This document shows, in pieces, positions 2,935 through 49,782 of a DNA stretch of 64,000 nt; position 1 is the first letter of the stretch, and each line of letters opens with the position of its first letter. Below the pieces are notes generated by a model. It did no database searches, was not told the origin of the DNA, and worked only from the letters and a program-made list of their open reading frames with translations. The DNA lies in contig OY740789.1 in the NCBI GenBank assembly GCA_963514005.1, forward strand, positions 52,824,001 through 52,888,000. Reading direction: 5' to 3'. The position numbers were made by a program, and so were the translations under genes. The DNA comes from Raja brachyura (lineage: Eukaryota).

Positions 2935-3270
2935 CCTCGTCTCCGTTCTAAATGGCTTACTCCTTATTCTTAAACTGTGGCTCCTGGTTCTGGACTTCCC
3001 TAACATTAAGAACATGTTAACTGCCTCTAGCATGTCCAAACCCTTAACAATCTTATATGTTTCAATAAGATCCCCTCTCATCCTTCTAAACTCCAGAGTG
3101 TCCAAGCCCAGTCGATCCATTCTCTCAGCATATGACAGTCCTGCCATCCCAGGAATTAACCTTGTAAACCTACTCTGCACTTCCTCAATAGCAAGAATGT
3201 CCTGCCTCAAATTAGGGGACCAGAACTGCACACTATACTCCAGGTGTGGTCTCACTAATGCTCTGTACAC
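2935..3270 (-). mobile_element. CR1-clade LINE fragment (ORF2 C-terminus)
   Basis: LVRPHLEYSVQFWSP...RFTRLIPGMAGLSYAER...RRMRGDLIETYKI in ORF 2893..3492. Confidence 0.92.
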
Positions 3271-4554: not shown

Positions 4555-5010
4555 GAGAGTCCATTACACAGACCAGACTCCCCACCATTGACCCCATCCA
4601 CACTTCAGGGTACCTCAGGAAAGCAGCCATCATAATCAAAGACCTTTATCATCCCGATCATTCTGCCTCATCCCTGCTCCCATCGGGTGAAGATATAAAA
4701 AATTAAAAACACATGCCACCAGTCTCAGGAATACCTTCTTCCCCTATGTTATCAAACTTCTTAACAAGTCCTCCCATAAGCCAGAGCAGAGTCCCAATTT
4801 CCCACCCTACCTCATTGCAGACATTGGGCTTTTTCTCTAGAACGATTATACTACCATGTAGAGAAACTATATTCTGCACTCTGATATTTTTCCCTTTGTT
4901 ATTCCCATTATATTTCTTCGGCTTGATTGTATTCATGTATAATATCTGATTTGATTAGATAGCACGCAATCAATAGCTTCTCACTGTGCACGTGACAATA
5001 ATAAACCTAA
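4555..5010 (+). mobile_element. Rex1/Babar-type LINE 3' end
   Basis: Degenerate IIKD..HP...LPSG region homologous to 46380-46600; tail cactgtgcacgtgacaataataaac. Confidence 0.75.
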
Positions 5011-5037
5011 CCCGAAACCTTGTCAAGAATGTACGCT

Positions 5038-5335
5038 GGCGGCACGGTGGCGCAGCGGTAGAGTTGCTGCCTTACTGTGCTTGCAGCGCCAGAGACCCAG
5101 GTTCGACCCTGACTATGGGTGCTGTCTGTACGGAGTTTGTACGTTCTTCCCGTGACCGTAAAGATTTTCTCCAAGATATTTGGTTTCCTCCCACGCTTCA
5201 AAGACATATAGGCTTCTAGGTTAATTGGCTTGGTATGCGTAAATTGTCCCTTGTGCATGTAGTGTTAATGTGCGGCGATCACTGGTCGGTACGAACTCGG
5301 TGGGCTGAAGGGCTGTATCTCTAAACTAAACTAAA
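5038..5335 (+). mobile_element. HE1-like tRNA-derived V-SINE, near full length
   Basis: A box tggcgcagcgg, B box ggttcgacc, core ggtttcctcccac, CR1-like tail ending (ctaaa)n. Confidence 0.9.
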
Positions 5336-7745: not shown

Positions 7746-8749
7746 CTAAGTTATCCTTTATATTTCAATCTGAATGGAAACCAATCTCTAGTTCGTGCTA
7801 GAGTCCAGTTTTGCCCTCGTGTTTTATGCCTCTAGCTCCAATCTAGGATGCCACTGGGGACATCAGTAAATCTGCAGTGCACAGATGTATAGAGTAGGTG
7901 ACTGATGCATTGTTTGCCAGAGGTAGCACTTAACTTTCCCCGTGGACAGCCAACAACAGCATGAAGGGCCACAGCATTTTTCAAGTAGCAAGGTTACCCA
8001 AGGTCCAGTGTGTTATTGATGGTACCCAAATGGCCCTGTGTGCTTCAGTGTACAATAATTGTTCATTCATGACTGCAAAGGATTACCCCACTATTAATGA
8101 GCCACCATCTGCACAGAAGCATGCAGGTAAACGTCTGCAGCTTAAGCAGCATTTCTCATCCCTTTGTTTTAAGGCAATGTGCAATGCCACCCAGAAAAAG
8201 AGAGTGCAAAATTAGTTCCCAGGAGATTAATTTTAAGCCCTGCAGCTCAAACTCACGAGTCTCCATAGCAACTATGTCCAGGTAAAATAAGGTACACTCA
8301 TCCACCAAATTTATCCTCCAATATGCTATAGTGTTTGGTAATAACAGACTCGGATGTCTCACTGCAATACACTATAATAAAATAGATGTTGCTGAGATGA
8401 GAAAGTTATGCAACTGGAAATACCAGACAATGATCAGCTAAGAAATGACATGATAGGAGAATACATTGAATTAATTGCTACTGAAACATACTGTCAGGTA
8501 CTAGTTTGCAGGTACTTGAGGAACCACATTACCACATTCTCAGTATCTATCCACTCATTAAGGAGCAGTGCTCCCAGTTCTTCAAAATCCTGAAGAATAC
8601 ATCTTCACCTACAGTAACATGACATTTACTGAGCTGCTGCAGATGTCAGCCCTTGGCAAAGTCCGACTCCATAACAAGAAATGTCTCCAGAGACAGTTCC
8701 ACTGAAATAAATGCAAGTAAATGTCCAACCTGTGCTTATGAACTGTCTG

Positions 8750-8844
8750 AGTCTGAAGAAGGGTTTCGGCCTGAAACGTTGCCTATTTCCTTCGCTCCAT
8801 AGATGCTGCTGCACCCGCTGAGTTTCTCCAGCATTTTGTGTATC
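8750..8844 (+). mobile_element. 95-bp Penelope 3'-end insertion starting at the hammerhead motif
   Basis: CTGAAGAAGGGTTTCGGCCTGAAACGTT at 8753-8780; 15-bp TSD cttatgaactgtctg at 8735-8749 and 8845-8859; homologous to 31225-31320. Confidence 0.85.
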
Positions 8845-9379
8845 CTTATGAACTGTCTGTTTAGTTCCTCTTATAGTGTACATTTGGTCTACCTATGATT
8901 ACCTGCATAATACATACAATCAAGACTATCTTTCCAAAGTCACCAGCTCCAACATTTCTCCATCTGCAGTAATTGAACTGTTCCTGACAACTTCACAGCC
9001 AAACACTACAGTGAACATAGTGATGGAAGAAGTTGCCAATACATCATTTATCTAGCACTTGTTCACTCCCAATCTACTTACTTATACTTTGTTTGGGCTA
9101 GCCCGATTTTAGGTCTTGGTTTAATATTTAGATTTAGAAGCTAGATGTAAAGAAGGGGAAAGAACAGCCCTGGCAATCAAGACAGCTTTCAACCAAGTGC
9201 TGCACCGAGGTACTAGACAGATATGAGTCCTTAGATATACATTGGAAAATCCTTTAATATCCAACAAAGGAAGATAATTGTCATTGATGGTGAATCAGAG
9301 AAGCAGAATATTGGTGTTGCAATTTCATCTTGTTGAAATCTCTTCAGCTATCGGGGAACCCAGAGTCGGGAGATCAAGC

Positions 9380-45105: not shown

Positions 45106-46939
45106 TGTAGTGACAGATGTTTATAGCATTTCAAGGATTTAGTCCTTTAGTCACTATAATTGAAGACAGGGGATCAGAAGATAATCGATACGCACCCACA
45201 AGCGCTCCACGAGACACTCAATGCCATCGAAAGATGAATCTTCCAAACACAGTCTCTCGATTAATAGCTTATTTATTGTAGTAGTAAAAACAGTAAGATA
45301 TTCATCCAAACTTCTTCTTGTATAAATACATTTCAATTCAATAGTGGTCATGCTCGTCCATGGTCGAAAGCTATGACCTCTCCCCCATTCTTCTTCAAAC
45401 TAAACTAACTACTAGTTAGTCTAAAGTCACCAACCTGAATGACTACCGCCCGGTTGCCCTAACTCCAATACCAACAAAGTGCTTTGAAGGGCTGGTCCTC
45501 TCCCACATCAAATCCAACATCCCTGCATCATTGGACTCTCATCAATTTGCATACAGGGCAAATAGATCCACAGAGGATGCCATCTCTGTGGCTCTTCACA
45601 CTGTCCTGACCCACCTGGAAAGACAGGGCACCTACGTGAGGATGCTCTTCATTGACTATAGCTCTGCCTTCAATACGGTCATCCCACTAAGCTCACCACC
45701 AAACTCCACCAGCTAGGCCTCAGCTCACTGATATGCGATTGGATCCTGAATTTTCTGACGGAGCGACCACAGGCAGTGAGACTGGGGCCGCACCTATCCT
45801 CCACTATCACCCTGAGCCCCGGCACACCACAGGGCTGTGTACTGAGCCCCATGATCTACTCCCTCTTCACCCACGACTGTGTCCCTGCATTTGACAACAA
45901 CACCAATGTCAAGTTTGCAGATGACACAACGGTGATCGGGCTGATCACCAATGGTGATGAAACAAACTATAGAGCGGAGGTGCAGAACCTGGCAGACTGG
46001 TGCTCACGGAACAACTTGTTGCTAAACACCTCCAAGACCAAGGAGCTGAATATCGACTTCAGGAGGTCACAGAATGGGGAATACGCCTCAATCTCCATCT
46101 ACGGAGACAGTGTGGAGAGAGTGTCCAGCTTCAAGTTTCTGGGTACTCACATCTCAGAGGACCTCACATGGTCCATCAACACCGCTGCACTGGTCAAAAA
46201 GGCACAGCAACAACTGTTCTTCCTAAGAACATTGAAACGGACTGGTCTGCCCCAACAGCTGCTGACGACCTTCTACCACTGCACCACAGAGAGCATACTA
46301 ACATATGGCATCTCTTTGTGGTATCTCAACTGCACGGAGGCGGAGAGGAGAGCTCTTCAGCACGTTGTCCACAGAGCGCAACAGATTATTGGGACACCGC
46401 TACCAGCCTTGGAGGGCATCTACCACACACGGTGCCTCAGGAAGGCCTTCAGCATACATAAAGACTCCTCTCACCCTTGTAATGAACTGTTCGAACTACT
46501 CCCTTCCGGCAGACGTTACAAGGCCTCCTACGCCCGCACTACCAGACTCAGGAACAGCTTCATTCCCAGAGCTATAGCGGCTCTGAACCGGCCCTGCTGA
46601 GTGCCCCCCCCACTCCCATGGACTGTCTCCCCCGGCCTCGCACTTTAGTCTGTATTGACGTTACTGGTCAAATGTTCGTTTTTACAAACCTTGTTCTCGG
46701 GGGTTGCAAACCGAAATCTCGAAGTTGCTAACCAAATCTTGTTGCACTTTTGTGTAATGACAATAAAAGATATTATTATTATTATTATTATTATTACTAG
46801 TGTGTCATTGCGAGAATCCCAGCCACAAACACGCCTCAAGACTACATATAAATCCCACCCACATAATTACAGGCAGATAAAATTTAAAGGTAACTGGTTA
46901 TAGTTATAACATACTGAGTTGAGCTAAATAGCTACTACA
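45106..46939 (-). mobile_element. Solo LTR (~450 bp) interrupted by a LINE
   Basis: Ends TGTAGT...ACTACA (TG/CA, 6-bp inverted); 5-bp TSD accta at 45101-45105 and 46940-46944; AATAAA on minus near 45272 suggests orientation. Confidence 0.75.
45417..46794 (+). mobile_element. 5'-truncated Rex1/Babar-type LINE (RT C-terminal half, one frameshift near 45685)
   Basis: [50 protein letters not shown] motifs; AATAAA and (TAT)n tail; candidate TSD tactagt at 45410-45416 and 46795-46801. Confidence 0.9.
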
Positions 46940-47559: not shown

Positions 47560-48490
47560 AATCACTGTTTCCTTTGCTGAGACTCAAGCTACATTTTACT
47601 CCTTGACTACTCATTTGGAACCATAGCCAATGTCCTTCTTCTCCACGAGTCAATTTCCAGTCCAATATCTTATCAGCTCCACAATCCTTTTTTACAATAC
47701 TTTTTTATTTACTTACCTATATAATATTTTGGATTCCCTTTTATGTTTGTGGCCAATCTTTTCACATGGCCTCTTTCCTATTTTCTTTTTCACTTCCCCA
47801 TAAATGTCTCACTTGTACATTGGCCCTATTGTGTAGGATGCTAAACTAGGATGCCATAGAACTAGTGTGTAGGTAATGGATGGTGTGGATTCGCTGGGCT
47901 GAAGGGTCTATTTCCATTCTGTATCTCTAAACTAAATTAGAAGTAAACTAAGTGGAGCAAGTACTTGGTTTTCACTTTTGTCGTCAAGCCTGGCATCTGC
48001 TGTGCGCTTCTCTTCTCTGTTCTGATTTAATCTCTACTTCTGTTTTGGTCATCCACTGAGCTCTGACTTCAGTTTTCCCTCATGGGAATGTAATTCAATT
48101 GTGGCTGAAACATCTGCACTTTAACAGGCTTCCTCTGTTCAATTACACTTTTTGCCTGCCCAGCACTGAATTCAATTCATCCAAGCTAGATTTGTTCTCA
48201 TGCCAATGAAATTGGCCTTTATCCAATTGATTAGTTTTACCTCAGAGAGGCTGAGATTATTTCCCATGGCTATTCTACACGTGATATTATGATCGCTCTT
48301 TCCTAGATGCTCCCCCAGTGGTACTTGTTCCACTTGGCCTGGCTCATTTCCCAGAAACAAGTCGAGCAATGCTGTCTTCCTCATTCAGCCAGAAACACAC
48401 CGAAAGAGAATATTCTCTTGAACACCCTTCAGAATCTCATCCCTTACTTAGTTCCTTAAGTTATTGCGGCTCCAATCTATATTCATGGAG
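47560..48490 (-). mobile_element. Degenerate CR1 ORF2 fragments (endonuclease end and linker), with a SINE tail at ~47810-47945
   Basis: LLDLFLGNEPGQV...GEHLGKSDHN in ORF 48172..48384. Confidence 0.75.
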
Positions 48491-48704
48491 TTTAGGGTGG
48501 CACAGTGGCGCAGCTGGTAGAGTTGTTGCCTTGCAGTGCCAGAGATCCGGGTTTGATTCTGATTACGAGTGCTCTCTGTATGGAGTTTGTACGTGGGGTT
48601 TCCCCGAGTACTCTAGTTTCCTCCCACATTACAAAGACATATAGCTTTGTAGGTTAATTGGCTTTGGTAAATTGTAAATTGTCCCTAGTGTATAGGATAG
48701 TGTT

Positions 48705-48838
48705 CTTCTTGCATATGGCGTGCACAGCCTAAAGTTGTAGGTCAACGTGTTCTATTTAATCTATTTGTTTCTGCACATCGGGTTGATTGCATTAGTCAAA
48801 ACAGGGTGGACCACGTGAAGGTTCCAATCTCCCACTCC
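48705..48838 (-). mobile_element. Short non-autonomous retroposon, copy 2 (HDV-like ribozyme head, (GAA)n tail)
   Basis: 11-bp TSD aggatagtgtt at 48694-48704 and 48839-48849; interrupts a V-SINE. Confidence 0.9.
48785..48838 (-). ncRNA. HDV-like self-cleaving ribozyme motif, copy 2
   Basis: GGAGTGG-GA-GATTGGA-ACC-TTCACGT-GGT-CCACCCT-G-TTTTGA-CTAA-TGCAATC; canonical 7-nt L3 and CUAA J4/2; one mismatch each in P1 and P2. Confidence 0.78.
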
Positions 48839-49269
48839 AGGATAGTGTTAATGTTCAGGGTGATTGCTGGTCGACATGGACACGGTGGGCCGAAGCGCCT
48901 GTTTCCAGGCTGCATTGCTGTAAAGCAATAATGGAATGACCTTAGTGACTTTAAAGTCTCTTAACATTCTCATCACTTTAAAGTCTCTAAAGTCATTCCA
49001 TCATTGCTTCACTGTGTCCATTGTGCATCTCTGCAATTTTCCTGCAGATTTGCTTATCAATATCCCACCAGCTGGTGATTTACAGAACAATCCCAATGAT
49101 CGTAATGAGCCTTAACCAGTGAATATGAGGTCCTCCAGAGGGTCCAGGCATGATATGATGACAGACTCGTGTAGATGGGGCATGTTGATCGACGTGGACA
49201 ATTTTGGTTGATGGGCCTGTTTCCACACTATCTGACTCTATGGCTCTATTGATGTATTGATTGTAAGTG

Positions 49270-49782
49270 ACCAGTGATCACCCCGTAGACTAGCACTATC
49301 TTGCATACAATTTTTACCAAAGCCAATTAACCTGAACTTCTTTGGAGTGTGGAAAGAATCTGGAGCAGAGAAAACCCATGTGGTCTCAGGGAGAACATGC
49401 AAACTCCATACAGCCAACACCCGTAGTCAGGATTGAACCTGGGTCTCTGCCATTGTAAGGCAGCAACTCTACAACTATTCCAATATGCCGCCCTGAACCC
49501 AATCTACCTGAACCCATTTCATTTCCCCCACATTCCCATCACTTCCCCACTCTAGATTCTACCCTTCATTAGCATACTGGGGGCAATTTACAGTGGTTAA
49601 TTAACATACCAACCTGCACGTCATTTTTTGGGGGCTGGAACTGGGGCGCCCAAAGGAAACAGAGTGCATAGTCACAGGGTGAACACGCAAACTCCACACA
49701 GACTACACCAGAGGTCAGGATTCAACTCGGGTCACTGGAGCTGTGAGGCAGCAGCTCTACTAGCTGCACCACTGTGCCGCCT
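49270..49782 (-). mobile_element. Two adjacent V-SINE copies (~49270-49495 and ~49560-49782)
   Basis: Two B-box/head regions: ggattgaacc...gccgccc and ggattcaactc...ccactgtgccgcc. Confidence 0.8.

Follow-up and report, generated by a model that had tools for sequence, protein, structure and literature searches.

Two copies of a short element, lying in different host repeats of the 64,000-nt window (the whole stretch of DNA that was analyzed), begin at exactly the same base, and the question raised by the second of them is what fixes that 5′ end. Searches of the window with BLAST and nhmmer recovered copy 1 as the only other copy, and the features of the two insertions are as follows.

48705..48838, minus strand: copy 2, 134 nt long and without a coding frame
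48705..48711, minus strand: short (AAG)2 tail of copy 2
48712..48784, minus strand: 3′ body of copy 2, putatively the LINE 3′ end bound by reverse transcriptase
48694..48704, no strand: copy of the target site duplication (TSD) on the 3′ side of copy 2, 11 bp
48839..48849, no strand: TSD copy adjoining the first base (G1) of copy 2, 11 bp
48495..48915, plus strand: V-SINE host of copy 2, with tRNA-like head and V domain; limits approximate
32101..32238, minus strand: copy 1 of the element, 138 nt, 86% identical to copy 2, G1 at 32238
32090..32100, no strand: TSD copy on the 3′ side of copy 1, 11 bp
32239..32249, no strand: TSD copy adjoining G1 of copy 1, 11 bp
32027..32314, plus strand: host of copy 1, a Penelope-type terminal repeat family; limits approximate

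Copy 2 is a real, exactly bounded, TSD-flanked insertion that starts at G1, and the coordinates, 11-bp TSD, and start given in the original prediction proved exact. The insertion interrupts its V-SINE 3′ of the V domain, which was assigned by eye against the Ac1/MER6 sequences printed in the available part of the supplement of PMC6887750. An exact 11-mer at both ends arose by chance in 3 of 3,000 random intervals, and after in silico excision of either insertion, the host aligned across the site with other copies in the window. In both copies the first two TSD bases extend the tail repeat in phase, a microhomology of 2 nt. A filled allele is represented by one X3 contig, in which 33 bases of the element run into the unique flank on the right; among the contigs listed, none bridges the site with unique sequence on either side of it, and joints lacking the element may derive from other V-SINE copies and were excluded as empty-site evidence. 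The two insertions are independent, as had been proposed, each having its own host and its own exact 11-bp TSD, and both are younger than the hosts in which they are nested. The (GAA)n end described for the element applies to other copies, where contigs of public runs showed longer tails, better than to copy 2, which has only about two units with one substitution.

A putative ribozyme occupies the first 54 nt of the element. Its parts in copy 2, as paired segments or single stretches, are listed below.

48785..48838, minus strand: minimal (P4-less) HDV-like ribozyme fold, 54 nt, predicted by helix check and covariance model
48838: G1
48832..48838 with 48803..48809: P1
48823..48829 with 48785..48791: P2
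48820..48822 with 48810..48812: P3
48813..48819: L3
48802: P1.1 G
48796..48801: 6-nt loop
48792..48795: J4/2, with the predicted catalytic C at 48795

Read from its 5′ end, the head consists of a 7-bp P1 opened by a G1·U pair, a 2-nt J1/2, a crossing P2 of 7 bp, a 3-bp P3, and a 7-nt L3 able to pair with the G that follows P1. A 6-nt loop then replaces the missing P4 and separates this P1.1 G from the predicted catalytic C, which is the first base of J4/2. These are the modules of a minimal HDV-like ribozyme, and the head is predicted to adopt such a fold, P4-less and with a theta/CPEB3-type core, two traits that the original prediction did not mention. In copy 2, P1 has 6 of 7 pairs (A-C at element position 3), P2 has 6 of 7 (G-G at position 15), P3 has 3 of 3, L3 has 7 nt, and J4/2 reads CUAA. 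Copy 1 pairs fully in P1 (7/7), P2 (7/7), and P3 (3/3), and has an 8-nt L3 with one extra base and a J4/2 of CUGA; the predicted catalytic C is thus retained in both copies. The helix check thereby reproduced the nonoverlapping defects noted earlier. The U·G/U-A variation at P1 position 5, offered as a pair maintained between copies, is real but affects one strand only and falls in a CpG context, with CCG in copy 1 and CCA in copy 2; it therefore does not count as covariation. With one P1 and one P2 mismatch since insertion, copy 2 probably has little or no ribozyme activity left. The Rfam scan of the window gave no matches at the gathering threshold and one chance match (E value of 3.8) in 48600 to 48950. 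Nested single-strand folding, a method that cannot model pseudoknots, did not place the head above shuffled sequences (z scores of +1.13 and −0.27).

Relatives of the head were collected with a core pattern taken from copy 2, from which the 5′ strand of P1 was left out. The pattern retrieved 52 public loci (44 metagenome, 6 viral, and 2 genome), 51 of which were parsed and reduced to 34 distinct sequences; L046 could not be fitted by the fuller parse and was left out. A perfect 7/7 P1 was present in 23 of the 34 distinct relatives, compared with a mean of 4.3 and a maximum of 9 in 500 shufflings, while the 8 with P1 below 6/7 are decayed or chance matches. In 16 of the 34, a tRNA 3′ end lies within 1 nt of G1. 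A tRNA at the cleavage site is the hallmark of theta ribozymes, for which cleavage in vitro has been shown (available sections of PMC10879173), and the tRNA-abutting relatives belong to the theta ribozymes, a P4-less HDV-like class. The table of that paper contains 410 occurrences of the 13-nt P3/L3 core found in copy 2. In both window copies, target-site DNA and not tRNA adjoins G1; in its predicted mode of action the head resembles theta ribozymes, but it falls outside that class when the class is defined strictly by linkage to tRNA.

P1 covaried among 15 of these relatives, with 23 two-sided changes (0 of 500 shufflings scored as high), and a covariance model was built from the 15 with the window copies excluded. 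Scanning the window with this model gave exactly two strong sites, both beginning at G1, at 51.6 bits for copy 2 (a match spanning model positions 1 to 57, with a score that is partly circular in that the training set was chosen by the copy 2 pattern) and 41.7 bits for copy 1, which is not an exact match to the pattern. The next-best site reached 15 bits. One relative, L047, shows 85% identity across 47 nt. A direct transfer from phage to animal was not supported, the extra L047 identity beyond the constrained core amounting to a few bases among 34 pattern-picked candidates. Exact element motifs were absent from metagenome contigs and from viral contigs, and two exact-motif matches in prokaryote genomes, extending no more than 19 to 21 nt, were treated as chance.

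To describe the family beyond the window, contigs from four public runs were aligned to 48250 to 49300. Summed depth reached 0.84 million to 1.15 million over element positions 14 to 49 and 0.87 million to 1.18 million over positions 86 to 121, with unique flanks at about 5 to 13. This roughly 10^5-fold excess, in line with the high copy number suggested earlier, corresponds to a rough estimate of 10^5 copies, the figure being a depth ratio against unique flanks and not a copy number. Two copies per 64 kb extrapolate to about 5 × 10^4 per 1.6 Gb, the same order. Family depth was equal in X12, with the unique flank about 5% different.

The ratio of 5′ to 3′ bin depth was 0.93 to 0.97 in all four runs, and such near-equal depth is unlike a pile of 5′-truncated LINE tails. 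Depth fell to about 0.25 to 0.3 in the middle bin, the part in which copy 2 diverges most; deletions with varied junctions could produce the same drop. On the 3′ side, 570 to 683 contigs per run exit the element at 48703 and pass through more tail units into unrelated flanks. On the 5′ side, 24 of the longest 32 among about 185,000 pieces were other copies, and all nine other-copy pieces with at least 200 foreign 5′ letters stop at 48833 to 48839, within 5 nt of G1, in a table that favors the longest pieces and lacks upstream letters, is therefore biased to full-length copies, and can neither count truncated copies nor rule out a sequence common upstream of G1. At all eight element positions listed, one of them in the ribozyme, most other copies have the same base as copy 1, so the differences of copy 2 at these positions are private decay.

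Taken as a whole, the element is probably an internally deleted, non-autonomous LINE derivative (a SIDE of the RIME/NARTc kind), most likely from the Vingi branch of the Ingi group, that was released by self-cleavage and inserted by TPRT in trans. The TSD and simple-repeat tail are hallmarks of TPRT, and the family has no open reading frame, many dispersed copies, and a head fully explained by the ribozyme and not by a small RNA. The Rfam scan of the element found no tRNA, 5S, or 7SL head, which rules out a Pol III SINE. A donor copy would first be transcribed, through read-through or from an internal start. The 54-nt P4-less ribozyme would then, judging from its fold and its active relatives, cut just 5′ of G1, so that the RNA begins at G1 regardless of the sequence upstream. 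The remaining 3′ part of about 80 nt (hairpin, ACGA, and (AAG)n) would be bound in trans by an autonomous Vingi-type APE-RT. Nicks staggered by 11 bp and tail priming with the 2-nt microhomology would yield a full-length copy between 11-bp duplications; the junctions show this anatomy, to which a Vingi-type enzyme is the presumed contributor.

The same element could owe its fixed 5′ end to the +1 start of an internal promoter, as in Pr77, with an inherited ribozyme that is redundant or unneeded, and the original claim that the precise end comes from self-cleavage and not random truncation has to be divided accordingly. Random truncation is disfavored as the main pattern by the depth ratio and by the nine pieces, within the bias of their table, but self-cleavage is not established as the source, since a fixed start is expected for any full-length short element and the same 77 nt of L1Tc/NARTc act as both promoter and ribozyme (PMC3383444, available text). 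Both window copies also carry fold defects. Yet the element start falls exactly on G1 in the two copies, as well as on position 1 of the model, and nonoverlapping defects together with the copy 1-like majority are expected if an intact master decayed after insertion, with the reservation that only one of the eight positions falls in the ribozyme. We consider a promoter-defined end unlikely, and the self-cleaved Vingi derivative remains the preferred reading.

Several comparisons bear on the likely identity of the partner LINE. First, loci L003 and L044, on eukaryote-looking metagenome contigs, carry a Vingi-like LINE 5′ end (2207 to 2860 in L044) in which the same minimal ribozyme is followed directly by an APE endonuclease frame. 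Relatives of this frame are proteins of about 1,000 amino acids with APE and RT domains on contigs of 3.2 to 5.3 kb, and none of the nine APE-RT relatives scanned had a Pfam match to RNase H. Vingi is defined by APE and RT without RNase H (PMC13708176, in the part available), and the L003/L044-type proteins fit Vingi, an assignment made by architecture and not from a tree with named references. Second, L034/L019, likewise on metagenome contigs of eukaryotic look, contains at 919 to 1067 of L034 a 125-nt insert with a 12-bp TSD; the insert combines an L044-element ribozyme head (89% identity, inverted) with a 3′ end that reads as a Vingi-like C terminus. This C terminus was the best of 112 9-mers starting with W and is followed by ACGA and a trinucleotide repeat, the same ending that follows the stop codon in L059 and closes copy 1. 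Third, the 5′ ends of Vingi-2_Gav and Vingi-2_SPur, as printed in the accessible supplement of PMC5786205, have the same 7-nt L3 as the element. In the available text of that paper, bipartite derivatives lacking open reading frames are reported only for RTE, Ingi, Vingi, and R2, and L1Tc, of the Ingi clade that is sister to Vingi, has TSDs of 11 to 12 nt (PMC3383444, same limits).

In copy 1 the 3′ body folds as a long hairpin (z score of −1.66) that is disturbed in copy 2 by private changes (z score of −0.31), and it had no significant DNA match to the 19 loci tested. When scored as the end of a Vingi frame, the copy 2 body was equaled by 9 of 6,700 stop-terminated peptides and the copy 1 body by 659 of 6,700, and the majority base at position 97 abolishes a key residue of this putative Vingi C-terminal remnant. 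The 64-kb window contained no Vingi-like remnant, neither the window nor the fetched loci contained an autonomous partner with matching ends, and no Vingi-like proteins were present in viral contigs or plasmids.

With a 3′ body that has no demonstrated homologue, the ribozyme-headed bipartite element could have had a partner from another clade (RTE, Ingi proper, or Nimb/I) or could be a hybrid of a Vingi head and a swapped tail. Ribozymes at the 5′ end are reported in RTE, Ingi, R1, R2, R4, and LOA, RTE makes most bipartite elements (PMC5786205, text as available), and R2/R1 hybrid SIDEs are known (PMC3414825, likewise in part). Against this, no LINE-type frame other than the Vingi-like one was found immediately after this type of ribozyme, and both the ACGA-plus-trinucleotide end and TSDs of 11 to 12 bp agree with the Vingi-like examples, which makes a non-Vingi partner or tail quite improbable. 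A chance fold, or 5′ truncation of a longer element that by coincidence ended at one base in both copies, would agree with the Rfam result and with there being only two copies readable in full with both flanks, yet is largely refuted, and is very improbable, given that all HDV-like modules are present in order, that no third site in 64 kb exceeds 15 bits, that 5′ and 3′ depths are near equal, and that TSDs adjoin G1 twice.

As a probable Vingi derivative, the element resembles several known systems, and the general scheme of a ribozyme head joined to a LINE tail is not new. NARTc and RIME, the partners of L1Tc and ingi in trypanosomes (PMC3383444 and PMC4035085, available sections), are likewise LINE derivatives without open reading frames, have an HDV-like ribozyme, which in their case cleaves 5′ of the +1 position, belong to the Ingi group, and have TSDs of 11 to 12 nt. 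They differ in having a 77-nt head with demonstrated promoter and cleavage activity and a poly(A) tail, whereas the element has a 54-nt P4-less predicted head and a (GAA)n tail and resides in an animal genome. In Drosophila, the R2 SIDEs and their R2/R1 hybrids (PMC3414825) follow the plan proposed here, with a 5′ ribozyme and a LINE 3′ end, copying in trans, and no Pol III SINE character, but they insert specifically into 28S rDNA, reach low copy numbers, measure about 500 bp, and are headed by a large P4-bearing ribozyme; the element is dispersed, about 135 nt long, and present in on the order of 10^5 copies. The non-autonomous Vingi derivative Vingi-1_EE and the Vingi-derived SINE parts of SINE2-1_ACar and SINE2-1_AMi (PMC5786205) would share with the element the internal deletion of a Vingi, and printed Vingi 5′ ends share the L3 heptamer. 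The printed Vingi heads differ in being longer, with a P4-like segment, and Vingi lies outside the six ribozyme-bearing clades named in the available part of that paper. The element fits the bipartite non-autonomous LINEs of that paper, with formal membership hinging on the partner.

In structure, the head resembles the theta and minimal HDV-like ribozymes of gut phages (PMC10879173, accessible text), which also lack P4 and have the same 7-2-7-3-7-3-7 layout; the element differs in having no upstream tRNA and an animal retroposon as carrier. About 99% of theta-type ribozymes in that source come from phages, and the eukaryotes in its search, as given there, were human, mouse, and protists. Nothing in the present data shows that the likeness to theta reflects common descent rather than convergence. 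The CPEB3 ribozyme (bioRxiv 10.1101/2022.09.22.508989, in part) has a similar 7-nt L3 containing ACGU and a weak P1.1 made up of a G-C and a U-U pair, but is single copy, intronic, and 67 nt long with P4.

The literature searched contained no account of a high-copy animal retroposon with a P4-less ribozyme; repeat databases such as Repbase or Dfam may already list the family, its ribozyme unnoticed. It departs from the known scheme in that the head lacks P4 and the element, carried by an animal, is dispersed, very high in copy number, and about 135 nt long. If the master element cleaves, minimal HDV-like ribozymes would extend from mostly phage settings to a very abundant animal retroposon, and Vingi would join the LINE clades headed by ribozymes. 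Tens of thousands of dated copies would then show how mutation in nature has sampled a 54-nt ribozyme, in the manner of a mutational scan, and selection against self-cleaving RNA within genes would become directly testable. The element may also provide a naturally minimal pair of cis signals for the LINE clade used in RNA-only gene insertion (PMC13708176, available text). A broader conjecture is that P4-less theta-type ribozymes, rather than being peculiar to phages, are the standard 5′ device of an animal Vingi lineage, that the 135-nt element is a retroposon close to the minimum size that processes its own RNA, with roughly 10^5 copies that are among the largest ribozyme populations of a vertebrate genome and active enough to be selected against in sense introns, and that the theta ribozymes of phages, the Vingi heads, and CPEB3 inherited their shared core from one ancestor, CPEB3 having been domesticated from a Vingi head; as a joint proposition this is possible but doubtful.

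Several further observations were made on sequences outside the element. The 5′ ends of Vingi-2_Gav, Vingi-4_Crp, Vingi-2_SPur, and Vingi-1_BF and the body of SINE2-1_AMi (supplement of PMC5786205, as available) have the look of HDV-like ribozymes; two of these sequences have a CPEB3-type L3, a likeness to ribozymes on which the accessible text of the paper does not remark. Vingi-like fragments of eukaryotic LINEs in L055, L056, L057, and L059 lie on short contigs of prokaryote metagenome-assembled genomes and are probably contamination. The likeness of the printed Vingi heads may extend to the CPEB3 ribozyme as a whole. Within the window, the 377 frames of at least 55 amino acids had Pfam matches to retroelement domains only, giving no sign of a host gene, and positions 45420 to 46600 (plus strand) contain an RVT_1 fragment of another LINE, which we take to be Rex1/Babar-like, with 21 to 26% likeness to Vingi-type proteins.

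Further minimal HDV-like folds, a group that is partly decayed, were present in L036 (1308 to 1364), L011 (1022 to 1080), L043 (592 to 650), L009 (384 to 440), and L015 (52 to 108), on contigs of eukaryotic look in which no tRNA, downstream long frame, or TSD was found. L025 carries four theta-like ribozymes (3211 to 3264, 4992 to 5047, 8667 to 8723, and 9240 to 9295) in one tRNA-rich stretch of 10 kb, and three of the four were missed by the search pattern. In L045, a minimal HDV-like fold with a perfect P1 (3022 to 3077) and no tRNA nearby lies directly before a 361-amino-acid frame that by eye resembles a DNA polymerase sliding clamp. A repeat located about 250 nt behind a GIY-YIG frame has 73% likeness to the host of copy 1. 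That repeat contains a hammerhead-core motif, and hammerhead-core-like motifs occur in the Penelope-type family hosting copy 1 at window positions 8753, 13607, 31228, and 33610 (plus strand) and 59859 (minus strand). Hammerhead motifs of such a kind have been described (PMC4209133, in the text available).
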